Shown here piece by piece: positions 15,366-51,629 of a stretch of 64,000 nucleotides of DNA (position 1 is the first letter of the stretch; the number at the start of each line of letters is the position of its first letter). The notes under the pieces are model-generated. The model did no database searches and was not told where the DNA came from. It saw only the letters and a list, made by a program, of their open reading frames with translations. The position numbers were made by a program, and so were the translations under genes. This DNA is from an uncultured Clostridium sp. (GTDB lineage: Bacteria > Bacillota > Clostridia > TANB77 > CAG-508). The DNA lies in NCBI GenBank assembly GCA_947087745.1, contig CAMUDX010000002.1, positions 17,151-81,150 on the forward strand. The letters run 5' to 3'.

Positions 15366-15415
15366 GTTCTTAGCTTATGTTAGCTTTTACTAACATTCCT
15401 CCTTTTTACATTTTA

Positions 15416-19351: not shown

Positions 19352-19382
19352 TTTTATTCCTTTCTTGTGTAAATATTTTAAA

Positions 19383-21075: not shown

Positions 21076-21257
21076 CTTATTTTCTCCTTTTTTCTTTTTG
21101 TATTTTTTGTCATTTTTACGAGTACAGTATATCATTTATGTTTTTTTTTATCAATAATTTATGCATATTTTTTATAGTAAATATGTAAATTTCTTGTGAA
21201 TCTTTTATGAATATTAAAATAGTTATAAGTTGTCTAATCTCTTATAACTATTTATGC

Positions 21258-23303
21258 TTAAATTTCTATTCTATTACCAAATTTATTTTTTACTTTATTA
21301 TTTAATAGACTATTTTCTACTGTTCCCAGTTTTGGGTCTTTTTCTAAAATACTTATAGATAAATCTTGTACTTGTTTTAGTATTGGTAAATCTTCAAACA
21401 AATTTGCTACCTTAAATTCAGGTATTCCATGCTGTTCTGTTCCAAAAAAGTCTCCTGTTCCTCTTAATTGTAAGTCTTTTTCTGCAATTAAAAATCCATC
21501 ATTTGTTTGTGCCATTATTTTCATTCTTTCTATTGTATTTTGTCCTTTTCCTTCATATTTTAATATACAATATGATTTATATTCTCCTCTTCCTACTCTT
21601 CCTCTTAATTGATGTAATTGTGCTAGACCAAATCTTTCTGCATTTTCTACTACCATTATACTTGCATTTGGCACATTTACTCCTACTTCTATTACTGTAG
21701 TTGATATTAGAATGTCTATGTTTCCATCTTTAAATTCTTGCATTATTGCATCTTTTTCTTTTGCTTTCATTTTTCCATATACACATTCTACTCTATATTC
21801 ACTAAATACTTCATTTTTATATTTTTCTACTAATGTTTTTACTGCCTTTAAATCACTTTCTTCGCTTTCTTCTACTAATGGGCATACTATGTATGCCTGC
21901 CTTCCTTCTTCTATTTGCTTTTTTATAAATCCATTTACTCTTTCTTCCGTATTTTTTCTTACTGCAAATGTGTCTATCTTCTTTCTGTTTGGAGGCAGTT
22001 CATCTATTATTGATATGTCTAAGTCTCCATATAATATTAAACCTAGAGTTCTTGGTATTGGCGTTGCTGACATTACTAGTACATCAGGATTTTGTCCTTT
22101 TTCTACGATTTTTGTTCTTTGTTTTACACCAAATCTATGTTGTTCATCTGTTATTACTAATCCTAAGTTCTTAAACACTACATTGTCTTCTATCATTGCG
22201 TGTGTTCCTATTAATATATCGATTTTTCCTGCCTCTAATTCTTCTAGAACTTCTCTTTTCCTTTTTGCTGTCAAACTTGATATTAATAATCCACATTTTA
22301 TTCCTTTCTGTTCAAACATTTCTGTAAAACTTTCTAAATGTTGTGTTGCTAGTATTGCAGTTGGTGCTAATAATGCAACTTGATATCCTGATTTTACTGC
22401 TTTATATGCTGATATTATTGCTACTGCTGTTTTTCCAGACCCTACATCTCCTTGTAATAGCCTATTCATATTCTTTTTGCTTTCCATGTCTCTGTCTATT
22501 TCTTCTAATACTCTTAACTGTGCTTTTGTTAACTTAAATGGCAATAAATTTATCATTTCTGACATTTTTGCTTCTTCTTTAAATTGTATTCCGTTTCTAT
22601 CATTTTTGTATTCGTTTTTTAGATATAATAAGGCTAGTTGCATTATTAATAATTCTTCAAATGCTAACCTTCTTCTTGCTTGTTCAAATTCACTTAGTTC
22701 GTTTGGAAAATGTATTTTTTTTATTGCTTCATTATATTTTAATAATTTGTATTGTTCTAAAATCCTATTTGGTAATGTTTCTTCTAGTTTCCCATATATT
22801 TCATTCATCCCTATTTCTATTATTTTTCTTAATGTATTTTGTGATAAATTTTTTGTTAATGGATATATTGGTATTATTTTTCCTGTATTTTTTGTTTCCC
22901 CTTCAATGTCATATGTTGGACTTGCTATTTCTATCCTTCCATTTTTGTTTGATATTTTTCCATAGAATTTATATTTTTTTCCTGGTGTGAATATGTTTTT
23001 TAAATATGTTTGATTGTACCATATTGCTGTGCATGTTCCTGTTTCATCTCTTAACATTAACCTACATATTGTCATTCTTCTTGTTCTTATTTCTGTCATT
23101 CTTGATACTACTACCGCTTCTATTAGTGTTTCTTCTCCATCTATGCATTCACATATTTTCTTTGTTTTACTTCTGTCTTCATATTCTCTTGGAAAATATG
23201 TTATTAAGTCTCCTAATGTATTTATATTTAATTTATTTAATAATTTTGCTCTGTTTGGTCCTACTGTTTTTATATATTGTACTTCTTTTTCTAAATTTAT
23301 CAT
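21258..23303 (-). CDS. recG: ATP-dependent DNA helicase RecG
   Basis: Wedge domain, GDVGSGKT Walker A, DEQH box and a TRG motif region; 681 aa. Confidence 0.9.
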   Translation of the reverse strand: MINLEKEVQYIKTVGPNRAKLLNKLNINTLGDLITYFPREYEDRSKTKKICECIDGEETLIEAVVVSRMTEIRTRRMTICRLMLRDETGTCTAIWYNQTYLKNIFTPGKKYKFYGKISNKNGRIEIASPTYDIEGETKNTGKIIPIYPLTKNLSQNTLRKIIEIGMNEIYGKLEETLPNRILEQYKLLKYNEAIKKIHFPNELSEFEQARRRLAFEELLIMQLALLYLKNEYKNDRNGIQFKEEAKMSEMINLLPFKLTKAQLRVLEEIDRDMESKKNMNRLLQGDVGSGKTAVAIISAYKAVKSGYQVALLAPTAILATQHLESFTEMFEQKGIKCGLLISSLTAKRKREVLEELEAGKIDILIGTHAMIEDNVVFKNLGLVITDEQHRFGVKQRTKIVEKGQNPDVLVMSATPIPRTLGLILYGDLDISIIDELPPNRKKIDTFAVRKNTEERVNGFIKKQIEEGRQAYIVCPLVEESEESDLKAVKTLVEKYKNEVFSEYRVECVYGKMKAKEKDAIMQEFKDGNIDILISTTVIEVGVNVPNASIMVVENAERFGLAQLHQLRGRVGRGEYKSYCILKYEGKGQNTIERMKIMAQTNDGFLIAEKDLQLRGTGDFFGTEQHGIPEFKVANLFEDLPILKQVQDLSISILEKDPKLGTVENSLLNNKVKNKFGNRIEI

Positions 23304-23333
23304 TCTTTGTTTTCTCCGTTTTTGTTTATTGTA

Positions 23334-24038
23334 TCATACGATATACAATTCAAAATTCAATCCATCGGCACTTACTAATTTATACTCTATACCATCAATA
23401 AGACCTTCTATGGCTTCTTTAATAGAATCACTATGTAAATGCCCATATAAGCACTTTTTAACATTATACTTTTTCATAATATTCACAAAATTTAATTCTT
23501 CATCTTTAATAATTTTAAAATTATTAATTGGAGGATAATGCATACACACAATAATTTCTTTTTCAGTTCCGTATTTATTAATACCATCTTTTATAGATAA
23601 TTCTAACCTTGCAAGTTCTCTATTCAATATTTTTTCATCCTCTTCTTCATCAATTGTACTCCACCCTCTTGTTCCTGCAATTATATAATTATCATATTCA
23701 TATGCATTATTATATATAAAATCAATTGTTTCGAAACTATTTTCTTTTAAAAATCTCCTCATACTTGTTAATGTTGTCCACCAATAATCATGGTTACCTT
23801 TTAATAGAAGTTTTTTTCCTGGTAGGGAATTTAAGTATTCAAAATCTTTTTTTGTTTCTTGCAAATATGTAGCCCATGAAAAATCTCCTGGCAATAATAC
23901 TATGTCATCACTTTTTACTTTTTCTATCCAATTTTTCTTTATCTTTTCTTCATGACCTATCCAATTTTCTCCAAATATATCCATTGGTTTATTCTGCTCA
24001 AATGATAAATGTAGGTCTGCTATTGCATATATTGCCAT
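23334..24038 (-). CDS. calcineurin-like metallophosphoesterase
   Basis: DLHLS, GDF and GNHD metal-binding motifs. Confidence 0.7.
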   Translation of the reverse strand: MAIYAIADLHLSFEQNKPMDIFGENWIGHEEKIKKNWIEKVKSDDIVLLPGDFSWATYLQETKKDFEYLNSLPGKKLLLKGNHDYWWTTLTSMRRFLKENSFETIDFIYNNAYEYDNYIIAGTRGWSTIDEEEDEKILNRELARLELSIKDGINKYGTEKEIIVCMHYPPINNFKIIKDEELNFVNIMKKYNVKKCLYGHLHSDSIKEAIEGLIDGIEYKLVSADGLNFELYIV

Positions 24039-24041
24039 ATT

Positions 24042-25037
24042 TTATCTTTCTCCTATTTTTAAGTTTGGTACTGCATTTAACTTTAAATCAGAAATATCTC
24101 CATTTATATATCTATAATATCCTGCTGCACCTATCATCGCTCCATTATCTGTACACAATTTTAAATCAGGCATATATATTTGTATACCTTGTTCTTGTAA
24201 TTTCATAAATTCTTTTCTTATATATGAATTTGCCGATACTCCTCCTGCTAATGCTACAGCTTTTACTCCTGTTTGTTCAATTGCTTTTTTTGTATTTTCT
24301 ATTAGTATTTCTGTTACTGTCTTTTGAAAACTAGCACATAAATCAGCCTTATTTATATCTGGCTGTTTATGATGTAAATTTATTATTGCTGTTTTTATTC
24401 CACTAAAACTAAAATCTAAATTGTCTATATGTGTTTTTGGTAGTTCTATATTTGCTGTTCCTGTTTGTGCTAATTTATCTATTTTAGGTCCTCCTGGATA
24501 TCCTAGTCCTATTACTCTTGCTACTTTATCAAATGCCTCTCCTATTGCGTCATCTCGTGTTTTTCCTAATACCTCAAACCCACAATATTCTTTTACATGA
24601 ACTATTTGTGTGTTTCCTCCTGATGTCATCATGCATAAGAATGGAGGTTTTAAATCTTTATGTGTTATGTAGTTTGCAGCTATATGTCCTTCTATATGGT
24701 TTACTCCTACTAATGGCTTATTTATTGCATAACTTAGTCCTTTAGCATATGATAATCCTACTAATACTGCTCCTACTAGTCCAGGTCCATATGTTGGTGT
24801 TATAACATCTATATCTCTAAATGTTATTTTTGCTTCTTGTAATGCTTCTTTTACTACTCTTGTTATTGCTTCTATATGGTTTCTTGATGCTATTTCTGGT
24901 ACTACTCCTCCATATTTTTCATGTATTTTTATTTGTGTATCTATTATGTTTGATAGTATTTCTCTTCCATTTTTTATTACTGCTACCGCTGTTTCATCAC
25001 AGCTTGATTCTATTCCTAATGTTATTATATCTTTCAT
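24042..25037 (-). CDS. tsaD: tRNA N6-adenosine threonylcarbamoyltransferase TsaD
   Basis: [14 protein letters not shown]-terminus and Kae1/Gcp family signatures. The likely start is the internal MKDIITLG. Confidence 0.9.
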
Positions 25038-25109
25038 TTTATCTTTTCTTCCTTTTATGTTTTTTCTAAGACTTCTTCTATTTTGATACATTAATAAATT
25101 ATAATAGAT

Positions 25110-25847
25110 TTATCCTATTCTAAATATAAATACTCCTAGATTTACAATTTGTTCTGTTATATTAGATATTATAGGTGATATTAACTTACCTGCTATTCCT
25201 GTTATCCATATGAATAAAAATATCATATAAAAGATTTGCTCATTGTCTTGAAACCAATACTTTGCTTTTGTAGGAAGTATTGGCAAAAATATTTTTGAGC
25301 CATCTAGTGGTGGTAATGGTATTAGATTGAATACTCCTAAGCCTATATTCATTATTATTGTTGAAGATATTAATGACATTATTACTGTTCCTACAGTTGA
25401 AACTATAAATGTCGCACTTGCAAATTTAACTATTGCACAATATATTAGTGTAAATACAATTGCTAATACAAAGTTCATTAATGGTCCAGCAAGTGATACT
25501 ATCGCATCTGCTTTTTCCATTGACATTCTTCTGTCATAGTTTCTTGGATTTACTTGTACTGGCTTTCCCCATCCTATATGTGCAAATATTAGCATTGCTA
25601 ACCCTAATGGGTCTACATGGTCCATTGGATTTAAACTTAGTCTTCCTTGTCTTCTTGGTGTATCATCTCCTAATTTGTCTGCTGCATATGCGTGTGCAAA
25701 TTCATGGAATGTTATTGCTAATAACACTCCTGGTATTGATAGTAATAAACCTAATAGTGCTCCTTCTGTTGTTGCATAAGTAGATATTGTCCATAACACC
25801 ATTATTCCTATTAGTATATATATTATTCTTTTGTCAAAACTAAACAT
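25110..25847 (-). CDS. site-2 protease family (peptidase M50) membrane metalloprotease
   Basis: HEFAHAYAA (HExxH) in a TM helix, a second LDGS motif, and multiple TM segments. Confidence 0.7.
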   Translation of the reverse strand: MFSFDKRIIYILIGIMVLWTISTYATTEGALLGLLLSIPGVLLAITFHEFAHAYAADKLGDDTPRRQGRLSLNPMDHVDPLGLAMLIFAHIGWGKPVQVNPRNYDRRMSMEKADAIVSLAGPLMNFVLAIVFTLIYCAIVKFASATFIVSTVGTVIMSLISSTIIMNIGLGVFNLIPLPPLDGSKIFLPILPTKAKYWFQDNEQIFYMIFLFIWITGIAGKLISPIISNITEQIVNLGVFIFRIG

Positions 25848-25902
25848 TTATCTTTTTCCTTTCTCCTATTATATTTTATAATAAACTTATTCTGAAACTT
25901 GT

Positions 25903-26319
25903 TTATGGTCCTTCTTGCATTGCTTCCCATTGTATATTCGTTGGTTTGTTTTTTGTTGTACAAAATTCTATTGCAGCATTTATTGCAGATTCTATAGTAA
26001 CAAAGTAAGTATTACTAAAAGAAACGGGATTGTATGGAATAATGATAGTTTCACCATTTGGATTCAAGTCATTATTATCATTAAGTGACTGCCATTGCTC
26101 ATCTTTATTTATGTAATAAAGATAAGCATATTCCTCATTTGCTTCAATCCATAATTGTACTTCATCATCTTTGCTACCATGCTCACTAAAATAGAAATAA
26201 TTGTAGTTGGAACAACCATTTCCTAAATCAAAACGCAATTTCATAATATTTCTTATTTTTTCAAAACTTTCACATTCCTCGTTTTGACTTTTTTGGCCAT
26301 TGTAATATTCAACTTTCAA
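25903..26319 (-). CDS. hypothetical small acidic protein; first gene of the accessory region
   Basis: 138-aa ORF with no recognisable motif; it sits where conserved core synteny ends. Confidence 0.35.
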   Translation of the reverse strand: MKVEYYNGQKSQNEECESFEKIRNIMKLRFDLGNGCSNYNYFYFSEHGSKDDEVQLWIEANEEYAYLYYINKDEQWQSLNDNNDLNPNGETIIIPYNPVSFSNTYFVTIESAINAAIEFCTTKNKPTNIQWEAMQEGP

Positions 26320-26436
26320 AATAGCACTCTCCTGTTCCTAAACTAGTTGTTTTCTAGTTCATAATTATATATTCCACATATTAATGATAGACGCAAGTAG
26401 TGTCTTTTCCTCTTTTGTCAGCTGATTCTTTTGTCA

Positions 26437-26516
26437 CATTAATAGTATTTAATAATGTACCATCAAAATCAAAAAAGACAAATTTATATTCTTTCATTTT
26501 AATCTGCTCTCTAAAT
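26437..26516 (-). repeat. orphan 80-bp copy of the 5' end (RBS plus first ~20 codons) of the HAD-hydrolase gene at 31383..31462
   Basis: Exact 80-bp duplicate read directly in both places. Identity ends precisely at the boundary where the att-like repeat R1 begins in the other copy. Confidence 0.8.
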
Positions 26517-26618
26517 GAATAAGAAATTAAGCGATGTAAGTTTAAGAAAAAACTCCACTAGAAGCTCTTGGCAGATAAAACTTACATCGTTTAGTTTAAT
26601 TGCACAAACTGCGGAAAT

Positions 26619-27083
26619 TTAATCAAATATCTTTTGATGTGAAAAATCTCCATCATCATAAATAATTCCTTTTTTCATATTTTTAATTACATTTCTAATA
26701 CGTATAATGGTGTTTTCTGGTAATTCATTTATATTAAACCATTTTAAATCATCACATTTATTTGGCTCCATTATTTTTGGAGTTCCTGTATATTTATTGG
26801 TTGTAAAAAATACATTGATATAATCTTCTTGGTATGGATGAATAATAGAAACTAATTCTAAATTTTTTTCTTGTATGTCTAAATTAATTTCTTCCTTAGC
26901 CTCTCTACATAGTGCCATTGATAGTGATTCTCCTTTTTCAAGATGACCACTACAAGCTGTATCATATTTTCCATCCATATATCCTGTATTACATCTTTCT
27001 TGAAGTAAAATCTGTGTTTGTCCTTCTATTTCCCTTGTTAATATTAAAAATACTGCTACTTTACTTTGATATCTTTCTTTCAA
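26619..27083 (-). CDS. NUDIX hydrolase
   Basis: Nudix box GHLEKGESLSMALCREAKEEINL (Gx5Ex7REUxEExGU). Confidence 0.8.
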   Translation of the reverse strand: MKERYQSKVAVFLILTREIEGQTQILLQERCNTGYMDGKYDTACSGHLEKGESLSMALCREAKEEINLDIQEKNLELVSIIHPYQEDYINVFFTTNKYTGTPKIMEPNKCDDLKWFNINELPENTIIRIRNVIKNMKKGIIYDDGDFSHQKIFD

Positions 27084-27283
27084 ACTTATTTGCCTCCTTA
27101 CATTAAAACTTTTCTATGGAGTTTTTAAACTTTATCTCTTATTCTTTTTTTCTTATTTTACTATATTTTCCTGAATATATCAATTTTTAAGTTGAAATTT
27201 CTATAAAATTTTAGTAAAATATATATAGAGACCCCCTCCCCAATAAAGAGGCAATTTTTAAGAGGGTATGAAATTGTGAATTA

Positions 27284-28408
27284 TTATGCTGGACTAGGTC
27301 TTATTAAATGTCCAATTTCACAAACTGGACATAAATTAAAGTCTTTTCCAGACACTTTCTTTAGTATTTTGAGAGGGGAAATATTTTCTTTAGTTAACAC
27401 TTTTGTATTTGTGAGAGATTTACAAAGTGTTAATTTTTTCGTTTTATTTCTATTTCCCAATAATCCAAAATGTCGTATCTTCATAAATCTAGGTGGCAGT
27501 ATATGTAATATGAATCTTCTAATAAATTCATCTGCATCTAATACCATTGTTTTCATTTTATTTTTATCTCTATAATCACGCCATTTAAAAGTTACTTTTC
27601 CATTATCTATATTTAATATTCTACTATTAGAAATTGCTACTCTATGAGTATATCTTCCTAAATATTCTATTACACTATTTGCATTTTTAAATGGTGGCTT
27701 ACAATATACAACCCAATCCTTAACATACAATGAAGATATGAATTTATCAAATTCTTGTGGTATTTTTAGTTCTTCAAGTTCTTTGTAAAAATCAAGCTTT
27801 TCTTGTTTCATGTAGTATATCAATTTTCCTCTAAATACTTTAGACAATACCTTTACTGGTATGAAGAATTTCTTTTTACTATTTCTCCATTTTCCCAAGC
27901 TATCAAGTCCCCCAGCTAGTACTATACAATGTATATGTGGGTGGTCTTTTAAATTTTGACCCCATGTATGCAGAATGGTTGTAAATCCTATTTGTGCTCC
28001 TAAATATTTTTTATCGTTTGCTAGTTCTTGCAATGTTTCTGATACTGTTTTAAACATTATATTATACATTTTTGTTTGATTGTAATATACAACTTTATTT
28101 AATATATCTGGTACTGTAAATACCACATGAAAGTATTGCACATTTAATACATTAAACTTTTGATTATATATCCATTTTTCTTTTGCTGATGTTTGACATT
28201 TCGGACAATGCCTATTTCTACAAGAATTGTAACTAATTTTTTTATGACCACAATGGTCACATATATCTTCATGTGCTCCTAATTGTGCTGTCCTACATTT
28301 TTCTATTGCATTTAATGTTTTCTTTACATATATTGGCAAATTATGTTTTTCTTTATATTGTTTTCCATATTGACTTAATATATCTTGTAATTCAGGCATT
28401 TTCATCAC
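27284..28408 (-). CDS. IS91-family transposase (rolling-circle HUH/Y2)
   Basis: N-terminal zinc-binding cluster CDHCGHKK...CRNRHCPKC, HTWGQNL...HPHIHCIV (HUH) and C-terminal conserved tyrosines. Confidence 0.8.
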   Translation of the reverse strand: MMKMPELQDILSQYGKQYKEKHNLPIYVKKTLNAIEKCRTAQLGAHEDICDHCGHKKISYNSCRNRHCPKCQTSAKEKWIYNQKFNVLNVQYFHVVFTVPDILNKVVYYNQTKMYNIMFKTVSETLQELANDKKYLGAQIGFTTILHTWGQNLKDHPHIHCIVLAGGLDSLGKWRNSKKKFFIPVKVLSKVFRGKLIYYMKQEKLDFYKELEELKIPQEFDKFISSLYVKDWVVYCKPPFKNANSVIEYLGRYTHRVAISNSRILNIDNGKVTFKWRDYRDKNKMKTMVLDADEFIRRFILHILPPRFMKIRHFGLLGNRNKTKKLTLCKSLTNTKVLTKENISPLKILKKVSGKDFNLCPVCEIGHLIRPSPA

Positions 28409-29274
28409 CTGACCTATACAATCTATCTAATGGATTTACAATGTCTTTTTCTACATTTGCAAGATGTAAATATTCCATTGTTGACCTTATTCCTGAATGT
28501 CCAAGTAATTTTTGTAAATGCAATATGTCTAATCCATTTTCTATTAAATCTGTTGCAAAATTATGTCTTAATCCATGTACTGTTACTTTTCTTGTTATTC
28601 CTGCTTTTTTTCTTATTTCTCTAAATGCAATTTCTGGACCTGATGGAGTATATTTGTCGTTTGTTTGTTGAGAAATGAATAGATAATTTTCCTTGTGCTT
28701 CGGTCTATATGCTTTAAAATATTCTCTTAATATTTCTAAATTAATTTGTGATAGCAAAGTATATCTATACTTGCTTTCTTTTCCTTCTCGGACTAATATT
28801 CTCATATTTTTACTATCAATATCTTGTATTCTTAAATTACACAGTTCTGATACTCTAAGTCCTCCACCATATACTGTCATAAACATAGCTTTATATTTTA
28901 AACCGCAATCTTTTATTCTCACAAGCCTTAAAAAATCTTTTCAGTTCTTCCTTTGTAAACATTTCTGGCTTATTCTTTTGTATTTTAAATAGAGGTATCC
29001 TCTTTAAATTTAATACTTTATTTAGTGTTGTTCCATACATAAATCGTACTGCACTGTTATATGTATTTACATCTCGTCTTTTGTTTTTACGTTCTTCTAC
29101 TAGATATTTTAGAAAATCTCTAATATCATCTTCTGTTAATTTTTCAATATCTTTTCCTTTGTGAAATTCCATATATCTACTAACTCGCCAGATATATGAT
29201 TTTTTTGTTTTTTCTGCTAAACCTCTAAATGTCATGTCTTCTTCCATGTGTTTTATTATTTCTTCATTACACAT
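28392..29274 (-). pseudogene. IS91-associated tyrosine recombinase (phage-integrase-like), frameshifted
   Basis: ORF 28891..29274 encodes a SAM-like N domain (ends ...FKACENKRLRFKI*). ORF 28392..28922 encodes the catalytic domain (RVSE...HGLRHNFATDL...LGHSGIRSTMEYLH). The two overlap out of frame at an AAAA run; removing one A gives a continuous integrase. Confidence 0.65.
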
Positions 29275-29447
29275 AAAAAACTCCTTTCAATAGATATTTG
29301 TAGACATAATCTACTTAATATCTATTTTAAAGAGTTTTTCTTGATATTTCAATACTTACAGCTTTTTAGATTTTAACTAGTAGCAATTTGTTATTTTTAG
29401 TGCTATACTAACTTAAACGACCACTGCGACAGCAGTTTAGTGCAATT

Positions 29448-29519
29448 ACTATTTTTATTATAATGCAATTTTAATGCTACCCGATTAAATTTATTAAAAT
29501 CCATTAAACTTTATTAATC
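29448..29519. repeat. att-like repeat family, compact copy (R1-R2-R3')
   Basis: tactatttttattataatgcaattttaatgctac + ccgattaaatttattaaaa + tccattaaactttattaatc. Related copies lie at 31463.., 34607.. and 34846... Confidence 0.75.
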
Positions 29520-30410
29520 TTATTGTTTATTTAATTTTTTATAAGCTACTGTTAATATCTCCTTATACTTTCCTTTAATAACTTCTTTATAAAATTCTTT
29601 TCTTATATTTGAAATTATATTAATTTCATCTATCAACTTAAAAATTTCATTCATATTAATTCTATCATACATTCTAATTAAAGCATTATTACAATCTTCA
29701 TTTTTCAAACTTGTAATAAATTCAAAGTATTTTATTTTTGCACCATCATCTCTAATTGCAGATGATGTATTTTTTATACAATCTTGCATTTTTGAGTTAT
29801 TTTCTAAACATTCTTGCATTTTTTCATCTGTGTATACTGAAAATAAGCAAGAGCCACAATCATAAATTGGTGCAAATGTTAATTTTTCATCTTTAATATT
29901 CTTTAAAAATCCCCAATTCCCATTGTGCCTATCTTCATTTCCTATTAAGCAATCAATTATAAACATATTCCAAAATTTTTCTTTTAATTTATCTAAATCT
30001 ATATTGTAGATTCCTGTTTGTACTATATGAAATATGTCTTTTAATTCTCTTTTGAAAGGATTTGGCTCTATACTAGCATTTTCAAATTTTTCAAATTCAA
30101 CTAATTTAGTATCACAATCTGTAAAATCTTCACATCCACAAACAATTCTTTCTTTTCCATCTTTATTGTAAATACCAAGTTCTACTTTTTGTGTTTCAAA
30201 TCCACATAATTCAAATACTTTAGTACCTATATATTCAGAATATACATTATTTATATATGATATTTCTATCTTTGTTGATCTATTAGGATCTGGAAATTTA
30301 ACTAAATATTTTTTGTTATTTAATATCATTGTCTTTTTCTTTTCACTACCAGTATATTCTGGTGCTATTTCTAAAGCTTTTGAAAAATCTAATAATTGCA
30401 TGTTTCCCAC
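29520..30410 (-). CDS. HipA-like kinase-domain protein (toxin-like)
   Basis: IGNEDRHNGNWGFL matches the HipA/CtkA catalytic-loop motif (D-x-H-x-x-N). 296 aa, shorter than canonical HipA. Confidence 0.55.
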   Translation of the reverse strand: MGNMQLLDFSKALEIAPEYTGSEKKKTMILNNKKYLVKFPDPNRSTKIEISYINNVYSEYIGTKVFELCGFETQKVELGIYNKDGKERIVCGCEDFTDCDTKLVEFEKFENASIEPNPFKRELKDIFHIVQTGIYNIDLDKLKEKFWNMFIIDCLIGNEDRHNGNWGFLKNIKDEKLTFAPIYDCGSCLFSVYTDEKMQECLENNSKMQDCIKNTSSAIRDDGAKIKYFEFITSLKNEDCNNALIRMYDRINMNEIFKLIDEINIISNIRKEFYKEVIKGKYKEILTVAYKKLNKQ

Positions 30411-30425
30411 TCCTTTTTTATTTTC

Positions 30426-30656
30426 CTATTTATTTGCTAATTCATTATCTACATACTCTCGTGCTTCTTCAATATTATCTGTTTCTACAAAGATATTTTC
30501 ATTTTCGTCTTCAACAGAATATCTCGTATATTCTCCTCTTATATAACTATATATTATATAACCTTTATATCTTTCCACCAAATCATTATATCTTCTTCTC
30601 ATTGGACCTTTACAAGTTATATCTTGAATTTCATATTCTTTAAAATTAAATTTCAT
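30426..30656 (-). CDS. small hypothetical protein upstream of the HipA-like gene
   Basis: 76-aa ORF from MKFNFKEY, just upstream of the HipA-like gene. It has no HTH motif. Confidence 0.3.
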   Translation of the reverse strand: MKFNFKEYEIQDITCKGPMRRRYNDLVERYKGYIIYSYIRGEYTRYSVEDENENIFVETDNIEEAREYVDNELANK

Positions 30657-30984
30657 AACTACTATTCTTTCTTTAAAATTTATTATTATAAAAAACAAAA
30701 TAGGATATATTATTTATACCCTACTTGTAATGTAAATCTCCCTACTTAAGTGGCAAGGGTTTTCCAATTATCATTTTTTATATTATAGGATACTTTTATA
30801 TTAATGTCAATTATATTTAACATTAATTTTATATATTATAATTCTAATTTCTCATTTTTGTCTCATCTTTTAGTACTCTCTGCTGAAATAAAATCAAATT
30901 TTTTTTAATTTTCCTTTATAGTGTTTACATCTCTATCTTATAAAAGCATAGTTTTCATTTTGTTAAATCTATATTCTCAATATT

Positions 30985-31443
30985 ATTAATTGCATGTTTC
31001 ATAATCTCTTTTTTTGTTATTCGAGAACTGTCTGTCGTCGCTCCAACTACCATATCAAAATATTTAAATATATCAAAATATTTTTATATTTTAATAGCAG
31101 TTTGTTCTAATTTAGCAGTTACTATAATTAATTTTTTTCCCTTTTTCTTTAATGTGCTTAACATTTCTTCAATTCCATTATACAACTCATTACATTCAAC
31201 GGTATTTTCACTTTGGTATTTTCTATATAATTTTATAGCTTCTTCTATATCTTCATCATTCACATTATATTTCTTAAAAGATTCTCTCAATGGTGGACCG
31301 CAAAAAATATTTCCTATATTTTCAGCATCCGATACTAATATATTAAAATGTTTTAAAGCATATAGAGCTGATTCTTTTGTCCCATTAATAGTATTTAATA
31401 ATGTACCATCAAAATCAAAAAAGACAAATTTATATTCTTTCAT
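30985..31443 (-). pseudogene. HAD-family hydrolase, disrupted by frameshift/stop
   Basis: N-terminal FFDFDGTLLNT (HAD motif I). The ORF stops after 119 aa, and the C-terminal motif (...VVGATTDSSRITKKEIM...) continues in another frame, next to an ~18-bp tandem duplication atatcaaaatattt. Confidence 0.6.
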
Positions 31444-31462
31444 TTTAATCTGCTCTCTAAAT

Positions 31463-31617
31463 TACTATTTTTATTATAATGCAATTTTAATGCTACCAAC
31501 TTAAAAATTAGTAAAAACATAATAATTTTTTCATTTTAATTATTTTTATAAATTTTTCTATATAGTACAGTTTCAATACTTTTAAGTTCTTATTAAACTT
31601 TATTAAAACTCATTAAC
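31463..31617. repeat. att-like repeat family, expanded copy (R1 ... ~95 bp ... R3)
   Basis: R1 tactatttttattataatgcaattttaatgctac at 31463-31496; R3 cttattaaactttattaaaactcattaac at 31589-31617. Homologous over its length to copy 34607-34762. Confidence 0.75.
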
Positions 31618-31627
31618 TTTTAATAAA

Positions 31628-32358
31628 TTAATCAACTTCTTCTGACACTTGTTCTATTGTTAGTATATAACTTTGCAATTTTTCACTAAGTCTTTCTTGG
31701 CATTTTTTTAATACTTGAGTTAATTGTTCTAAACTTCCTGTCCTTTGAGCCTTATATAAAGCCTCTCTATATTCTTTATTATATTCATCATCAATAGCAA
31801 TTAAATCAACATTATTCTCTAAACATTGTCTAAGTATAATAAATCTTCCTATTCTTCCATTGCCATCTTGAAAAGGGTGTATATGTTCAAATTTTTGATG
31901 AAAATCAGCTATAGCATGAATATCTTTTTTACTTTCTTTCCAATCTTCAAGTAAATTATAAATACTATTCTTAACTAAATGTGGTTCACACAATTTTAAG
32001 TCTGTCTTAGAAAGTCGATTCTCATATTTTTTCCATCTCCCTATATTATCTATTTCATCATCTACAGTTCCTTTTTTTAATAATCTATGCCACTGCCATA
32101 ATAAATATTTATCAAGTGGTTCTTTTAATGTATTGACTACATTATCAAATAATTCTAATGAGTTCTTTGTTTCTATTACATCATCTAAAAAATGTTCACC
32201 GATTAACTTGTTTTTGCTCTAAAAGATCTATTAAATTTTCTTTGCTAAACGTACTTCCCTCAAGTTTATTTGAATGGTATAGATATTCTATTTTGATTGC
32301 TCATATACTGAATTTTTTATTTTTGATAATTTTTGCATAGTATTAATAGATATTTTCA
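31628..32358 (-). pseudogene. Fic/Doc family protein, N-terminal half fragmented by multiple frameshifts
   Basis: The intact C-terminal ORF carries HPFQDGNGRIGR (Fic motif HxFx[DE]GNGR). The upstream ~350 bp encodes recognisable Fic N-terminal pieces (YHSNKLEGSTFSKE...) in three different frames. Confidence 0.6.
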
Positions 32359-32512
32359 TATACTTTTCCTCCCTTCGTATTTTTACTTTTTGAAATTTTT
32401 ATTATAAATTCAACAGTATATATAATATTATAATTCTTCTCTTTTAACTAACCTTTTGTATAGAATCTAGCCATTTCAAATTCACTATGAAATTGTAATT
32501 TTGCAGTTACTT

Positions 32513-33040
32513 TTAAATTTCTTTAATGATACTTTCTAAACTAGAAAAATCAACAAAATTAACTTTTTGATTATAAGTATCTATCATTGCTTTAACTTCT
32601 GCTGTTTTCTTTTCTTCTGGTAGTCCTTTTGCTTTTTTATAAAGTAAACTCATCATTGTTTTATGAGCAAAATTTAATTTTGAATAATCTATTCCACCTC
32701 TTAAATGATAAATAGATGCTTTTTCATATATTTCATTTGAAAGTTGTCTTTTCATACCATTTTCTATATTACTTGTATTTTCTATATCCATAGGGTCTGC
32801 TAATCCAACTGTTGCAATTATTATTTTCTTATTTCCATAATTAGATATTTTTTTGAAAGTTTTAGCCATTCCTAAAACTCCACCTGCATAAAGTCCACCT
32901 AGATAAATAATTTTATCATACTTATTTATATCTTTTATTTCTTCAAACGATATTGCTTGTATTTTAGTTATTTTTGATAATTCCTCTGCATACATTCTTG
33001 TTGTTCCATATTGAGAACCATATATTATAATTTCACTCAT
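32513..33040 (-). CDS. flavodoxin-like fold protein
   Basis: IIIYGSQYGTTRMYAEEL N-terminus typical of flavodoxin-like FMN-binding proteins. Confidence 0.65.
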   Translation of the reverse strand: MSEIIIYGSQYGTTRMYAEELSKITKIQAISFEEIKDINKYDKIIYLGGLYAGGVLGMAKTFKKISNYGNKKIIIATVGLADPMDIENTSNIENGMKRQLSNEIYEKASIYHLRGGIDYSKLNFAHKTMMSLLYKKAKGLPEEKKTAEVKAMIDTYNQKVNFVDFSSLESIIKEI

Positions 33041-33065
33041 ATAAATCTCCTCTATTTATTGTAAT

Positions 33066-33782
33066 TTAGCGAATACTTTTATAATCAATATTGGCTAATT
33101 TTGCTTGCTTACACAAATCCTTTGTTTGTATTTTATATTGTTTTCCATCTTTTATTGTATAAGTTCCACATTGTCTAAATTCAAAACTAACCTCTTTTCT
33201 TATACATTGCTCTCTAATATCTAAAGCCCACGAATAATCAAATATTCTAGCATTTATATCAGATTCTCCACCAACTACTACAAGTTCTATATTATCAAGA
33301 TATTTTTCTATATATATTTTCTCTAATAATGGCTGTGCTGTTATACATTTATGTTTTATTGGTAAATCTTTAAAAATTGATAACTTATAATCAGCATTTT
33401 TTTGATTTTCAATAGTACAACATACAACTACATTATCATATCCATCATTCCAGTCATTTGGAATACATTTCATAAATCTATCAATTCTTTTTGTTAGAAA
33501 CAGAAAAGTACAGTCCTGCCTTTCTTTAATCATTTTCCAACAGTCATTTCTCCACTCGTCTGCTTCTTCAATAAGAAAATCTGTAGAAAAACATAAATAA
33601 ACAATTCCAGATTTCATTTTATAATTGCCATTTTTTAATTTCTCTATTGGCTTTTCAAAGTCTTTTGTTTTTATAATTTCATTTGTATCTACTTTTCTTT
33701 TAAAATCTCCTTTATGAATATAGCAATGTAAACAACCATCACTACATTTCTTACATCCTCGCCAAGCGTTCCACATTGCCAT
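33066..33782 (-). CDS. DUF5131 / phage Gp37-Gp68 family protein
   Basis: N-terminal WNAWRGCKKCSDGCLHCY matches the WNP..GC...S.GC..CYA signature of this family. Confidence 0.55.
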   Translation of the reverse strand: MAMWNAWRGCKKCSDGCLHCYIHKGDFKRKVDTNEIIKTKDFEKPIEKLKNGNYKMKSGIVYLCFSTDFLIEEADEWRNDCWKMIKERQDCTFLFLTKRIDRFMKCIPNDWNDGYDNVVVCCTIENQKNADYKLSIFKDLPIKHKCITAQPLLEKIYIEKYLDNIELVVVGGESDINARIFDYSWALDIREQCIRKEVSFEFRQCGTYTIKDGKQYKIQTKDLCKQAKLANIDYKSIR

Positions 33783-33794
33783 ATTTATACCACC

Positions 33795-34247
33795 TTAAAA
33801 TTTTGATTTTTCATAATTATAAGGAATACTTGTTCCTACAACTACATCTTCTATTTTTTCAATAATTAACCAATCATCCATATTTCCTTGATGGTCAAAA
33901 TCTAATGCTGTAATTTCTCCTACATCTTTAAATTCAACTAAACACAAACATTTTTTGTGCCATCTTTCTTTTTGCTTATCAGTTAGTTGTAATTTACTAT
34001 TATTATCTTCAATAGTTTTTGTTATTTCTTCATCACTTAGCTTTACATAGTTTTGAACATCTGTTACAACTGCTTTTGCTGTAATCTTTTTTGTTCCTTT
34101 TTCCATAAAATAAAGTGTTTCGTCTTTAAATACTCTACTATGTGGTATTTTTCTTCCTGCTGCACCTCTTATAATCATTGTTTTACTACCATCTATAATC
34201 TTATTTAATTCTTTTGATTTATCATCACAATATACTAAATGCACCAT
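33795..34247 (-). CDS. ASCH/PUA-like domain protein (tentative)
   Basis: 150 aa; GSKTMIIRG...PHSRVFKDETLYFMEKG resembles the ASCH beta-barrel. Weak call. Confidence 0.35.
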   Translation of the reverse strand: MVHLVYCDDKSKELNKIIDGSKTMIIRGAAGRKIPHSRVFKDETLYFMEKGTKKITAKAVVTDVQNYVKLSDEEITKTIEDNNSKLQLTDKQKERWHKKCLCLVEFKDVGEITALDFDHQGNMDDWLIIEKIEDVVVGTSIPYNYEKSKF

Positions 34248-34283
34248 AATTTTACCTCATCTTTCTAATTTTAAGTTGTATAT

Positions 34284-34583
34284 CTAATACTTTTTTATTA
34301 ATTTTGAAATTAAAGCTCTACAAGTATTCATTTGAATACAAGCATAAAAATTATTCGTTACTTCTTTACCTTTCCCAATTGTTGTTGCATTATTTGCATC
34401 TTCTTCCGTTTCCCAAAGAACAAAATCAGTCCAGATATTACCTTGTAAGTAATGCTCCCAAGAGATAAATCCCTTTGCTTTAGAAATAATTTCATCATGT
34501 AATTTTTGCGTTAATTTTACAAATTCCTCTTCACTTACACCTTTTTTAAGTTTATATGAAAATATCCATGCTGTTTTATTCAT
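34284..34583 (-). CDS. small ABM/Dabb-like (ferredoxin-like fold) protein (tentative)
   Basis: 99 aa; length and hydrophobic pattern (WEHY...WTDFVLWETEEDA) are compatible with antibiotic-biosynthesis-monooxygenase-like proteins. Confidence 0.35.
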   Translation of the reverse strand: MNKTAWIFSYKLKKGVSEEEFVKLTQKLHDEIISKAKGFISWEHYLQGNIWTDFVLWETEEDANNATTIGKGKEVTNNFYACIQMNTCRALISKLIKKY

Positions 34584-34606
34584 ATATAAATTCCTCCCTA
34601 CAAATT

Positions 34607-34762
34607 ACTATTTTTTATTATAATTCAATTTTAATGCTACATCACCAAAAATATAGTAATCTTTTGTCTTTACCATTTTGATAATATTTTGTATATTAGT
34701 ACATTTTTCAATGCTTTTAAGTTTTTATTAAACTTTATTAAAACTCATTAAGCATTATTAAG
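34607..34762. repeat. att-like repeat family, expanded copy (R1 ... R3)
   Basis: R1 variant at 34607-34640 and R3 at 34733-34762. The central region is homologous to 31497-31588. Confidence 0.75.
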
Positions 34763-34845
34763 AGGTTTCATTGAACTTTTTATCAAGTTCTTTGTAACCT
34801 GCTTGATTGTTATTGTTTCGGGCATTTTTTAATGTTCAAAAACTG

Positions 34846-34901
34846 CTATTTTAATGCTACCCGATTAAATTTATTAAAACTTATTAAACTTTATTAGTAA
34901 T
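34846..34901. repeat. att-like repeat family, compact copy (partial R1-R2-R3') immediately 3' of the ICE integrase gene; candidate attL
   Basis: ctattttaatgctac + ccgattaaatttattaaaa + cttattaaactttattagtaat, lying 87 bp downstream of the integrase stop. Confidence 0.6.
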
Positions 34902-34987: not shown

Positions 34988-36202
34988 TTAAAAAATAGAG
35001 TTAATTTTTTCAATTTCTTTTTCCTTAAATTCATGAAATACACTTGTATATGTATTTAGTGTAACTTGTATATCTTTATGTCCTAATATTCTTTGTAAAA
35101 CAACTGGACTTACTCCGTTTTCAATACATCTCGTTGCAAATGTATGTCTTAACATGTGCGTATTTACTTTACTTTTTGTTATATTACATTGATATATTGT
35201 TTTAGTCTTTCTTCCACCTTTTATTCCTACCTTTTTCTTATAAACCCTAATATCTGCATTTTTGCATAATTTTTGAAATCTCGAATTGAAACTCGTAGCG
35301 TGTATAAAGTTTCCATTTTTTAAAAATAGAAAACCTCTCTTTTTATCAATTTGATATTCTACTAATTTATCGTATAAAGTATTTAGTATAGGTACATCTC
35401 TCATTCCTGCATAAGTTTTCGTTGTATTTTCTAATAAAATTCTTCCTTTATCAACATGGCTTAATGTTTTTCTTACATATATTTTTTTGTTTTCAAAATC
35501 TATATCTTCTCTTTTTAGTGCTAATATTTCACTTATTCTCATTCCTGTATATATAGCTATATAAAATACTATTGTATAATCATCATACCCTTTGTCTAAT
35601 TCTTTTATAAACCTTTCTTCCTCTTCTACTGTTAGTGCATCTATTTCTTTTGTTGGTTTACTAGATTTAGGTTTCATTATATATCCCTTTAAATCAAAAG
35701 GATTCTTATCTACTATATCTCTAATCCTTGCTTCATTAAAAGCACCTTGTAATTGTTGCCATACTTTTGTGATTACTGATTGTGAATACGAAGTAAGAGT
35801 TTGACTTTGCATATTTATTATACTTCTAGTAACATTTTGAATTGGAATATTTGCAAAAGGTAATATTTTCTTCATTATATCTATCGATTCTCCAATTCGT
35901 ATGTATGATGCTCTTTTTATAGAATTAGTATTATATTTTAGTTCTCTTATTTCTTCAGCAATATCTACTATTGATAACTTATTTGTTACATCTGTCCCAT
36001 CTTGCATTTCTCTCTGGATTTGCTCCATTTTATCTTTTACTTCTTTTCTTGTATCTCCATAAAGGCTTTTTCTTATTTGTTTTCCATTTCCATCTCTTCC
36101 TAATGTAACTTGTCCTACCCATTTCTTTGTTGCTTCTGAATAATAAATAGTTCCTTCTCCATTACCTCTTTTTCTCATTGTTCTTGCCATAATTTCCTCC
36201 AT
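34988..36202 (-). CDS. int: tyrosine site-specific integrase (Tn916/phage type, with N-terminal arm-binding domain)
   Basis: N-terminal RKRGNGEGTIYY...GRDGNGKQIRK (AP2-like arm-binding domain). Catalytic region with R...HMLRHTFATRCIENGVSPVVLQRILGHKDIQVTLNTYTSV. Confidence 0.9.
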   Translation of the reverse strand: MEEIMARTMRKRGNGEGTIYYSEATKKWVGQVTLGRDGNGKQIRKSLYGDTRKEVKDKMEQIQREMQDGTDVTNKLSIVDIAEEIRELKYNTNSIKRASYIRIGESIDIMKKILPFANIPIQNVTRSIINMQSQTLTSYSQSVITKVWQQLQGAFNEARIRDIVDKNPFDLKGYIMKPKSSKPTKEIDALTVEEEERFIKELDKGYDDYTIVFYIAIYTGMRISEILALKREDIDFENKKIYVRKTLSHVDKGRILLENTTKTYAGMRDVPILNTLYDKLVEYQIDKKRGFLFLKNGNFIHATSFNSRFQKLCKNADIRVYKKKVGIKGGRKTKTIYQCNITKSKVNTHMLRHTFATRCIENGVSPVVLQRILGHKDIQVTLNTYTSVFHEFKEKEIEKINSIF

Positions 36203-41887: not shown

Positions 41888-42946
41888 TTATTTGTTATTT
41901 TGTTTTGAATATAATAAATCTGCTTTTCTAATATCAAACTTTGTTCCAATTTTTAGGTTAAGTGTTTTTACAAATTCTATTAGCTGTTCTATATTTTGTT
42001 CTGCATTTTCTACTTTCTTTACTTCTAGCTCTATAAATATTCCTAAATCTTTAACATCTTGAATATATGCTATAAACTCATCATTCTCATACATATAATT
42101 TTTATCAATCATATTTAAAAATCTTGTATAACCTAATATATTCAAATGCTTTTCTGCTTCTTCTATGCTCATAACTTTTAATACAGACTTTTCTGTACTT
42201 ATCTCAAACCCATTGCTATTATGATTTCTTCTTTTACAAACTATCTTTTTGTCATCTTCATTAACATATCTAATAATTAGTGTATCTGTAATTCTTCCAT
42301 TTTTAGGTGCAAATTCATTAGTTCTATCATTTTTCATATATATATCATCTAATGTAAATTCTTCTATATATTTGAATCCTTTTTCTTCTAAAACTTTAAC
42401 AATAGTTGATATTTCTTCAAAGACTTCACAAGTTATTTCTATATCTTTTATAAACTTTGTTTCTTTTTTATCACTATCATATATTCCTACTTTTTCTTCT
42501 AATAGTTTAAAATTACAACTTATATCCACAAAAAATTTCTTTTTATCTACTGTTACCATTTTATATAATTTCTTTGCCACATTTCTTATTTTTTCTGTAT
42601 TTTGTTGTATAAAATTGTTTTGTGCCATTAACAAGTTTTTATATTTAATATCTTTAATTAAATTAAAATCTATTGGTGTTAGTACATCTCCTACAACTGG
42701 AATCATATTATTGAATCTAATAATTCCATAGTCTTGTCCTATTTTTATGTATGTTGGATTATCACTATATTTTTTGTGTGTACTTTTAGGCGAGAATAAA
42801 GGTGCAAAATATTTGATATTATCTATCTCAATAATAACACCTATATATGGTCTTTTTTGATTTTTATTGTATGGAACTTTATCATCAAATTGATATAAAT
42901 AATCAATATATTTATCATCTATGTTATAAAATTTTAATCTATCCAT
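41888..42946 (-). CDS. type III toxin-antitoxin ToxN/AbiQ-family endoribonuclease fused to a C-terminal CYTH-like domain
   Basis: Residues 1-~160 align with AbiQ/ToxN (KFYNIDDKYIDYLYQFDDKVP...YIGVIIEIDNIKYFAPLFSPK...CNFKLLEEK vs AbiQ KFYTISSKYIEYLKEFDDKVP...FIGIVLEIQGHKYLAPLTSPK...CDFSLLEEK). The following ~190 aa have a CYTH/CyaB-like pattern (LIIRYV...KRR...E...LGYTRF...DLGIFIELEV). Start at MDRLKFYN, with an AAGGAGAG RBS. Confidence 0.7.
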   Translation of the reverse strand: MDRLKFYNIDDKYIDYLYQFDDKVPYNKNQKRPYIGVIIEIDNIKYFAPLFSPKSTHKKYSDNPTYIKIGQDYGIIRFNNMIPVVGDVLTPIDFNLIKDIKYKNLLMAQNNFIQQNTEKIRNVAKKLYKMVTVDKKKFFVDISCNFKLLEEKVGIYDSDKKETKFIKDIEITCEVFEEISTIVKVLEEKGFKYIEEFTLDDIYMKNDRTNEFAPKNGRITDTLIIRYVNEDDKKIVCKRRNHNSNGFEISTEKSVLKVMSIEEAEKHLNILGYTRFLNMIDKNYMYENDEFIAYIQDVKDLGIFIELEVKKVENAEQNIEQLIEFVKTLNLKIGTKFDIRKADLLYSKQNNK

Positions 42947-42965
42947 ATTCTCTCCTTTAACAAAA

Positions 42966-43000
42966 ATTGTGGGATGCTTATATAAAAACACCCCACATAG
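42966..43000 (-). terminator. hairpin between the ToxI-like repeats and the toxin gene (attenuator/terminator typical of type III TA loci)
   Basis: tgtggg(a)tg...ca(c)cccaca imperfect inverted repeat, placed exactly where ToxIN and AbiQ loci carry a terminator. Confidence 0.5.
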
Positions 43001-43007
43001 TTTTTAT

Positions 43008-43116
43008 CGCTTACTTAGGGCTAAGCTACTCCCATTTTTTATCTTCACTTAGGGCTTGAATACTCCCATTTTTTATTGTCAACTTTTGGCTTGACTACTC
43101 CCATTTGAAAATATTT
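43008..43116 (-). ncRNA. ToxI-like antitoxin RNA: three tandem ~36-nt repeats upstream of the ToxN-family gene
   Basis: Direct repeats ttacttagggctaagctactcccattttttatc / ttcacttagggcttgaatactcccattttttattgtc / aacttttggcttgactactcccatttgaaaatattt, with no interspersed spacers. Confidence 0.65.
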
Positions 43117-47018: not shown

Positions 47019-47057
47019 ATACTACTCCCTTATATTTCTTATGCTAATTACTGTAGC

Positions 47058-47423
47058 TTAAAATGCAATAACACAGAAATTATATAGCTCCTTTGAAATG
47101 TTTTTTAATCCTTCTCTATCTTTAACAGTTAAAACTACAATCATATCTTTTGGTAATTTATATCCATAAAATTCTCTATCTTTAACTATTTGATAATATT
47201 TATTTTGTGTACTTTCATTCAATTTGTCTATTTCAGATATAATAAAATAATCAAGTTCTTCTTTATTAGAGATTTTCTCTTTAAAAATTGTAAGCAATTC
47301 ACTATCATTAGAATCAGCATTCACAATAATTTTTGAATCTAATTCTTTACAATCTTCATTTTGTATTACAACACAGGTAGCAAGGCATCCTTTTTGTAAT
47401 TCTATCAATTCTTTATTAATCAT
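47058..47423 (-). CDS. hypothetical protein (121 aa) between the two DGR target genes
   Basis: ORF only; no motif recognised. Confidence 0.35.
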   Translation of the reverse strand: MINKELIELQKGCLATCVVIQNEDCKELDSKIIVNADSNDSELLTIFKEKISNKEELDYFIISEIDKLNESTQNKYYQIVKDREFYGYKLPKDMIVVLTVKDREGLKNISKELYNFCVIAF

Positions 47424-47424
47424 A

Positions 47425-50110: not shown

Positions 50111-50230
50111 CTATACTACTCCTATATTTTTGTATATCCATAGAATTTTTATAAAAATTTCATAGATACATTATCTCTTTTTTTATTCTACCATAACAAC
50201 TTTTTTTTGGGAATAGTTTTACATATTTTT

Positions 50231-51349: not shown

Positions 51350-51480
51350 CGCACTATTTCTTTAGCGGTTAGAAAAGAGAAAAATTCCTTCACTTTAAAA
51401 TACTGATATATTTTCCTTAAAATATATTTCTCTGATTCTTTATTTTAAATCCACTTTTATAGGATTTATCAAAAGTGAAT

Positions 51481-51558: not shown

Positions 51559-51629
51559 AGAGAATGGGGCTACAAAGAAAAACCCGAAATAAATTTTTCT
51601 CTTAATTAAAAGCCTTTCAGCCTAAAATC

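Follow-up and report, generated by a model that had tools for sequence, protein, structure and literature searches.

Repeat copies and genes at the locus

We analyzed a 64-kb stretch of the genome of an uncultured Clostridium sp. (contig CAMUDX010000002.1 of assembly GCA_947087745.1; hereafter the window), which is AT-rich (~27% GC) and carries nearly all of its genes on the minus strand. A family of intergenic repeats (R1, R2, and R3) occurs here in four copies, A to D, beside a gene for a tyrosine integrase. An earlier sequence-only reading had proposed them as att-site copies that accumulated through serial integration at one attB site, and comparison with about 100 related contigs (labelled L001 onward) supports this proposal. 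The repeats are very probably (roughly 85%) the paired end-arms of integrative elements, a family whose target in uncultured, low-GC gut Clostridia is the final lysS codons together with the stop codon. With the same probability, the locus would represent tandem accretion at the lysS 3' end, in which an integrative conjugative element (ICE) and small, integrase-less islets inserted one after another. Along the minus strand, the order is integrase (36202 to 34988), copy D, copy C, islet 1, copy B, islet 2, copy A, a second recombinase with an IS91-family transposase and a NUDIX gene, a HAD fragment, Imm1, Peptidase_M50, TsaD, Metallophos, and RecG.

The repeat motifs were found where the sequence-only reading had placed them, all on the plus strand and next to minus-strand genes. 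Its 34-nt motif begins at 29447 rather than 29448, and the claim that this motif occurs four times holds for a 13-nt core but not for the full 34-mer. The core, ATTTTAATGCTAC, has four matches in 64 kb compared with 0.52 expected; all four fall inside 5.4 kb, and none was found elsewhere in the window beyond 29.4–34.9 kb. The full motif is exact at 29447–29480 and 31463–31496 (a window search allowing up to three mismatches returned two matches, with none expected), differs by an added T and a single G>T substitution at 34606–34640, and is represented at 34848–34860 by just its last 13 nt. R2 and R3 are exact repeats too: CCGATTAAATTTATTAAAA occurs exactly at 29481 and 34861, and TTATTAAACTTTATTAAAACTCATTAA at 31590 and 34725.

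Alignment of the copies confirmed two compact versions (A, 29447–29520; D, 34848–34901) and two expanded versions (B, 31463–31616; C, 34606–34751), whose left and right flanks are shuffled around the core. It also recovered a conserved core, for which the sequence-only reading had suggested looking, together with inverted sub-repeats. The sub-repeats are direct; neither the repeat analysis nor the alignment reported inverted-repeat structure within the copies. Core and R1 together consist of two ~10-nt direct repeats, GCATTAAAAT and TGCATTATAAT. Copy D reaches ~100 nt further left (34748–34847); this stretch is conserved across other genomes, and a copy of the last seven lysS codons forms its end. 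Rfam and tRNA scans of the window found nothing.

Read in the sense of lysS, which is the minus strand of the window, the copies resolve into two arms. The lysS-proximal arm (LE) comprises a replacement lysS end (encoding MKPLNNA and a stop), R3 iterons, a ~90-nt spacer, the core GGTAGCATTAAAAT, and then TGCATTATAAT. The integrase-proximal arm (RE) comprises R3' iterons, R2, the core, ~70 nt, and CAATGAAACCTCTTAAT; in related loci, R3', R2, core, and ~70 nt lead on into CAATGAAACCT. In the RE version, GCATTAAAAT is followed by AGCAGTTTTT. The resulting map of the locus is as follows.

36217–64000, minus strand: ICE body, running off the window (Pfam; the integrase-proximal gene order is equal in L024–L028)
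34988–36202, minus strand: tyrosine integrase of the ICE, a 404-aa open reading frame (ORF; 400 aa as called elsewhere), Pfam Phage_integrase, 4e-26
34848–34901, minus strand: copy D, outer RE and ICE right end, with R3' iterons, R2 (TTTTAATAAATTTAATCGG), and core GTAGCATTAAAAT; kept in all aligned RE copies
34772–34847, minus strand: inner RE, AGCAGTTTTT...AAAAAGTTCA, ~75 nt from core to junction; kept in copy D of the window and in L024, L001, L012, L025, and L031
34747–34771, minus strand: O', the lysS-3'-end segment ATGAAACCTCTTAATAATGCTTAAT (MKPLNNA and stop), forming the ICE/islet 1 junction and holding the predicted crossover CTTAAT (tblastn match to the LysS C-terminus; att triad of L117/L116)
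34606–34751, minus strand: copy C, LE of islet 1, with R3, a ~85-nt spacer, core, and TGAATTATAATAAAAAATAGTA; an equal LE directly follows the lysS stop in L001, L003, L010, L012, and L013
31628–34583, minus strand: cargo of islet 1, encoding proteins of 99 aa and 150 aa, DUF5131, flavodoxin, and a frameshifted Fic; integrase-less (Pfam)
31463–31616, minus strand: copy B, RE/LE hybrid, with the Fic stop, R3, spacer, core, and R1; RE core, inner arm, and O' are missing (comparison with L001, L116, and L024)
29520–31443, minus strand: cargo of islet 2, encoding a HAD hydrolase (with an internal deletion), a 90-aa protein, and a HipA_C-like kinase (Pfam; comparison with L038)
29447–29520, minus strand: copy A, RE/LE hybrid, R3'-R2-core-R1; its left half aligns with RE and its right half with LE
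26517–29446, minus strand: unrelated 2.93-kb insertion in the R1 tail of copy A (Pfam; absent from L038)
26420–26516, minus strand: 5' fragment of another HAD gene, into which copy A ran on until the insertion separated them; 97% identical to 31366–31462 and contiguous with copy A in L038
23334–25847, minus strand: chromosomal flank of Peptidase_M50, TsaD, and Metallophos, the genes directly after lysS in empty-site genomes

Empty and occupied lysS sites in related genomes

The lysS gene itself is absent from the window, and 34748–34771 encodes MKPLNNA and a stop, the C-terminus of LysS as identified by tblastn. In the five related loci with an equal LE, this expanded element begins immediately 3' of the stop codon of lysS (TIGR00499, 4.6e-208). 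A compact copy follows Fic in L001 and HipA in L012, and in each case the conserved ~70-nt stretch and a second copy of the lysS end come next. Both ends of an islet (LE-cargo-RE) are seen in L001, L116, and L012.

Comparing the locus with related genomes, as had been suggested for defining the empty attB, identified this site as the lysS 3' end, which lies outside the window. Empty sites were found through LysS homologues (L046–51, L106–115, L119–124, and L117), and a second LysS look-up returned the same set. In empty sites of the M50-TsaD type, lysS is followed after 116–160 nt by M50-TsaD-Metallophos-RecG, the same synteny as in the window from 25847 to 21258. No R motifs were present in the empty-site spacers, whether of the lysS-M50-TsaD or the lysS-MGMT-Tag type. 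Because the empty sites also lack the inner RE, this segment is borne by the element.

A single species, whose contigs share an identical LysS, displays three states: the site is empty in L117 (lysS, 183 nt, MGMT-Tag), occupied by an islet alone in L116 and L001 (lysS-LE-[small ORFs and Fic]-RE-MGMT-Tag), and occupied by an ICE plus an islet in L024 (ICE-int-RE-O'-LE-[NUDIX...Fic]-RE-MGMT-Tag). The clean attB in L117 versus the islet in L116 constitutes a presence/absence polymorphism, and suggests that the islets may be currently mobile. The proposal of serial integration at one attB is supported by an empty attB, by islet-only and ICE-plus-islet states within one species, and by a repeat beside the integrase in all 14 homologous loci described below.

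The arms have a narrow distribution. Scanning species-representative genomes with an R1 20-mer gave nine true homologues, all in uncultured Clostridium/Clostridia metagenome-assembled genomes (MAGs), with one locus per MAG that either adjoins lysS or lies in such an array. A metagenome scan with AATCGGGTAGCATTAAAAT returned 54 matches, 52 of them unrelated ABC-transporter coding sequence, with true RE copies only in L077 and L104.

A second variant of LE follows lysS in L002 (770–1100) and L011 (500–860). It consists of an R3-like block, a different spacer, an R2-like block, the core, TGCATTAGAAAAT, and another R3-like block. In L002 this variant leads into ParA/ParB-like genes and is possibly the left end of an ICE.

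The integrase and its adjoining arm

The repeats had been linked to two tyrosine-recombinase genes. This link stands only for the gene at 34988–36202; the other gene lies in the 2.9-kb IS91-family insertion absent from L038. Integrases 100% and 90% identical to the ICE integrase were detected on many gut-metagenome contigs by homologue search, and 14 of these loci were retrieved (L024–L037). An RE lies ~110 nt past the integrase stop in the window and in 14/14 homologous loci. In all 14, the element extends ~85 nt past its core and meets host DNA at CAATGAAACC, beyond which the sequence differs from genome to genome: L032–L037 continue directly into M50-TsaD-Metallophos, and short, variable cargo is found elsewhere. 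The position of the core ~85 nt inside the element indicates that the core is not the junction. The best solved relative of the integrase is the Int protein of 6EMY/6EMZ (E 2e-21).

To the right of the integrase, Pfam identified MazF-like, ToxN (with repeats), diversity-generating retroelement (DGR), CHAP hydrolase, VirB4/TraG-like P-loop ATPase fused to a sortase, and PrgI genes. By this gene content the region is most likely an ICE. No relaxase or coupling protein was seen in the ICE portion inside the window, off which the element runs.

Where strand exchange would occur

The L117/L116 pair defines attB as ...CAATGAAACCTCTTAATAATGCTTAAT / AATTTTTTTG..., attL as ...GCTTAAT / GAGTTTTAATGAAG..., and attR as ...GTTCAATGAAACCTCTTAAT / AATTTTTTTG..., where the slash marks the boundary of identity. 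The overlap between these boundaries is CTTAAT, at the stop codon of lysS. The displaced native lysS ends that follow RE vary by genome (MKPLN, MKPLA, MKPLG, and others, each with a stop), and the functional LysS ends in the element-supplied LNNA. In L012, for example, the displaced end reads MKPLA and the working gene ends with the element-supplied MKPLNNA.

Given the overlap of the att boundaries in CTTAAT and the displaced lysS ends, exchange as judged from these alignments maps to the last lysS codons, at CAATGAAACCTCTTAAT at the lysS stop, and not to the 34-nt motif or its core, which lie 85–125 nt inside the element arms. The tyrosine integrase of the element would exchange strands within the segment of up to 20 nt common to RE and lysS, most likely in the CTTAAT that overlaps the stop codon, with presumed cleavage positions. 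The circular junction would read RE-CAATGAAACCTCTTAAT-GAGTTTTAATAAAG-LE. The predicted attP is ~300 bp long (RE-O'-LE, as at window 34606–34901), with the crossover near its middle.

Probable role of the core/R1 motif

Two different prophage integrase genes carry, overlapping their stop codons, an exact copy of the 17-mer GCATTAAAATTGCATTA, which spans the core and the start of R1 (L125 5176–5192; L129 4185–4201). Both integrases are ~50% identical to the ICE integrase and are integrated beside tRNA genes, which suggests that the motif travels with this integrase clade whatever the target. We propose that the core/R1 motif is probably a pair of putative arm-type Int binding sites and not the crossover, a role that its distance of 60–125 nt from the crossover would suit. 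The perfect TATAAT that R1 holds in every LE, on the coding strand and 20–40 nt upstream of the first cargo gene, may in addition drive cargo expression, which could come from this promoter-like site or from lysS read-through.

Stacked islets and the probable origin of copies A to D

The ICE, with its integrase at 34988–36202 and its body extending beyond 64000, sits upstream of at least two integrase-less islets already present at the site. These resemble cis-mobilizable elements (CIMEs). Islet 1 lies between an LE (copy C) and hybrid B, and islet 2 lies between B and hybrid A. Pfam detected no integrase or transfer genes in any islet ORF, and in this the islets agree with how CIMEs in tandem accretion with an ICE are defined. 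Their cargo recurs in related genomes: islet 1 has a Fic gene with 94% identity to the one that adjoins RE in L001, and the 90-aa and HipA genes lie between LE and RE in L012 (95% and 90% identity).

The four copies can be accommodated in one scheme. Copies D and C with the intervening O' (34606–34901) represent an intact RE-O'-LE junction, at which the ICE, by its right end, meets islet 1 at its left end, with the sequence predicted for a circular attP. In L001, L116, and L024, an equal Fic gene is followed by a full RE; copy B shares TTAATGAGTTTTAATAAA with that form and then diverges, as expected from a deletion between the directly repeated R3' of an RE and R3 of the next LE. Copy A has the structure expected from a deletion between the two cores of a junction of the D-C type, in which the cores are 220 nt apart. 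The HAD fragment at 26420–26516 that once continued copy A is, on its match to islet 2, a remnant of a third islet.

No ICE-backbone remnant was found between the islet arms, and the arm boundaries are sharp. What is novel here is that the islets are unusually small, with sharply bounded arms and only accessory genes. It is conceivable, though we consider it unlikely, that they are not decayed ICEs but dedicated, miniature, cassette-like integrative elements, each with one to five accessory or toxin/defence genes between ~165 nt of LE and ~140 nt of RE. For their integrase they would depend in trans on lysS-targeting ICEs or related prophages, and they would build up an array whose transcription is driven from lysS or from the TATAAT of LE. 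If so, they would be a functional analogue of the integron built on lambda-type att arms.

Two cargo genes merit separate mention. The HAD hydrolase gene in the window has a 189-bp internal deletion between 19-nt repeats (30957–30975) and is intact, at 216 aa, in L038 (3240–3428). The first gene of islet 1, encoding 99 aa, is found very widely (1387 index blocks) and occurs without LE in L015–L019; in L015–L017 (9884–10001) it follows SecA-VanZ, and homology to the window starts at AAAAATAGTAAT, in the R1 tail.

Points of doubt and alternative explanations

Several points weigh against end-arms acting at lysS. CTTAAT occurs twice in the L117 attB, which makes the exchange position ambiguous within ~20 nt; the L024 ICE must have crossed at the upstream CTTAAT or within ATGAAACCT. 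The window includes neither the ICE's left end nor this genome's lysS, so that attL of the ICE is unseen and only attR (RE plus lysS end) is present. Neither a circular (attP) junction nor an excision product was seen, and mobility rests on the presence/absence polymorphism. LE is decayed in some copies (L116). Pfam recognised no arm-binding domain in the N-terminus of Int, and the core repeats, as putative Int-binding sites, are direct rather than inverted. Finally, copy A could instead stem from a site-specific event at the core.

This last point belongs to an alternative in which recombination takes place at the 13-nt core GTAGCATTAAAAT itself and the locus is an integron-like cassette array, with the integrase inserting and excising blocks there. 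The shuffling of flanks around the core in the four window copies agrees with such an arrangement, the structure of copy A exactly fits recombination between two cores, and L002 and L011 run from lysS to the core and then into a different arm. We nevertheless regard it as improbable. The core is ~85 nt inside the element in the 14 integrase loci, which meet host DNA at CAATGAAACC; the empty sites have no core; and the L024 ICE is located upstream of a complete LE, not within it. The cassette-array recombination site that the sequence-only reading had also entertained fails on integron features as well, although the islets do behave as integrase-less modules: the integrase scored 59.6 bits against the integron-integrase profile TIGR02249 (cutoff 265) and 38.6 against PRK15417 (cutoff 435), no attC-like inverted repeats were reported in the copies, and the integrase is co-oriented with the array, not divergent from it.

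That the repeats are ordinary dispersed intergenic repeats, or promoter/terminator modules unrelated to element ends, is very improbable. The perfect TATAAT in R1, always located on the coding strand 20–40 nt ahead of the start of a gene, would suit a promoter module, but 4/4 copies fall within one 5.4-kb stretch of 64 kb, and neither the empty lysS-M50 spacer nor over 300 kb of related chromosomal loci contained the motifs. Genome-wide repeats of the repetitive extragenic palindromic (REP) type, which had been raised as the outcome that would count against element ends, were not seen: there is a single locus per MAG and no copy at other related loci, in a comparison that included no complete genome of the species. 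The promoter scan of this AT-rich window was uninformative (48 promoter-like sites versus 48.5 expected), the promoter/terminator scan gave no terminator-like sites inside the repeats, and Rfam matched none of them. We separately rejected the expanded copies as the native intergenic region downstream of lysS, as the empty sites are without any motif.

A separate IS91-family insertion and other features

The second recombinase gene lies in the 2.93-kb segment that interrupts copy A.

28392–29274, minus strand: frameshifted (split) tyrosine recombinase (Pfam)
27284–28408, minus strand: IS91-family Y2 transposase (Pfam)
26619–27083, minus strand: NUDIX passenger gene (Pfam)

L038 is 99.7–99.8% identical to window 15110–34195 but is without 26517–29446, and copy A is contiguous there with the HAD fragment. 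Because L038 lacks the segment, the recombinase, Y2 transposase, and NUDIX genes represent a separate insertion in the R1 tail, unrelated to the repeat family. The least probable account, in which the repeats are terIS/oriIS-like ends from rolling-circle, one-ended transposition of this adjacent IS91-family element (which also carries the tyrosine recombinase), can appeal to the transposase and its upstream recombinase gene directly adjoining copy A and to an array on the side where read-through mobilisation would act, yet it was rejected on the comparison with L038, which covers copies A and B, with A uninterrupted, in the absence of the insertion sequence (IS); RE and LE also accompany the ICE integrase in many contigs without an IS91 transposase, and the IS ends (an ATTGCAC.AAACTGC inverted repeat) are unrelated to R1–R3.

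The insertion point lies between ATAGTA and ATTTAGAG, with a 2–3-nt ambiguity. Inverted ATTGCAC(T)AAACTGC sequences occur near both ends of the insertion, and a ~80-nt hairpin region is found at 26528–26597. Elsewhere in the window, a long hairpin between two minus-strand genes (8114–8185; 34-nt arms, 91% complementary, 4-nt loop) is probably a terminator.

Two systems within the ICE were also noted. The DGR (44793–52211) comprises a reverse transcriptase (50231–51349), a bAvd-like gene (51630–52211), a template repeat (51478–51558), and variable repeats (46736–46816 and 49825–49905) at the 3' ends of genes for two paralogous AAA_5 proteins of 741/743 aa. The variable repeats differ from the template at 9 and 13 positions, every one at a template adenine. 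A candidate type III toxin-antitoxin locus (41888–43106) encodes a ToxN-domain protein (41888–42991; PF13958, 2e-44) whose extra C-terminal half weakly resembles CYTH; three tandem 34–35-nt repeats ahead of the gene (43001–43106) look like a ToxI-type RNA antitoxin.

Comparison with known systems

CIMEs and accretion have been defined and reviewed (PMC5704250). Examples are ICESt1/ICESt3 and CIMEs at fda in Streptococcus thermophilus. The locus described here shares with them a tyrosine integrase at one end of the element, a target at the 3' end of a conserved gene that is replaced by the element, and integrase-less attL/attR elements in tandem with an ICE and with internal hybrid att sites. 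It differs in its hosts (uncultured gut Clostridia), its target (lysS), and its att sequences. Its islets are also very small (~2–3 kb), carry accessory or toxin-like genes (Fic, HipA-like, NUDIX, HAD, and flavodoxin), and show no visible ICE-backbone remnants; their excision and cis-mobilisation are putative.

In Streptococcus, ICEs are known to integrate at the 3' end of lysS, with 13–17-bp direct repeats (PMC4701971); examples include ICE_SsuGZ1_lysS and the vanG family (PMC4701971, PMC7168690). Target gene and position (the last 13–17 bp of lysS as direct repeats), the tyrosine integrase, and, most likely, the conjugative nature of the element are equal in the two cases. In contrast, the hosts here are clostridial, and the long conserved arms with GCATTAAAAT repeats are a feature for which we found no earlier report. 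The ~300-bp predicted attP, the short direct repeats kept in both arms, and the 6EMY/6EMZ Int protein as nearest solved relative recall attP of lambda and of Tn916-Tn1549, in which arms with arm-type Int sites flank a core, although binding by Int or an excisionase is putative here and Pfam recognised no arm-binding domain.

Serial stacking at the 3' end of one housekeeping gene, repeated integration-site boundaries, and units of which some are recombinase-less are also seen in the composite islands of staphylococcal cassette chromosome (SCC) elements at the rlmH (orfX) 3' end in staphylococci. The recombinases of SCC elements, however, are of the serine (Ccr) type, and the repeats are short and have no long arms.

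Overall, the system belongs to known ICE/CIME accretion and is a clear but ordinary case of it, with no new mechanism. Accretion explains the patchwork of toxin-like and pseudogenised cargo beside the ICE. For an integrase clade in gut Clostridia that have received little study, the analysis provides delimited attB, attL, and attR sites, a ~300-bp predicted attP, and a candidate arm-site motif, which helps to annotate island boundaries in MAGs. It also marks the lysS 3' end as a hot spot of accretion beyond the streptococci.

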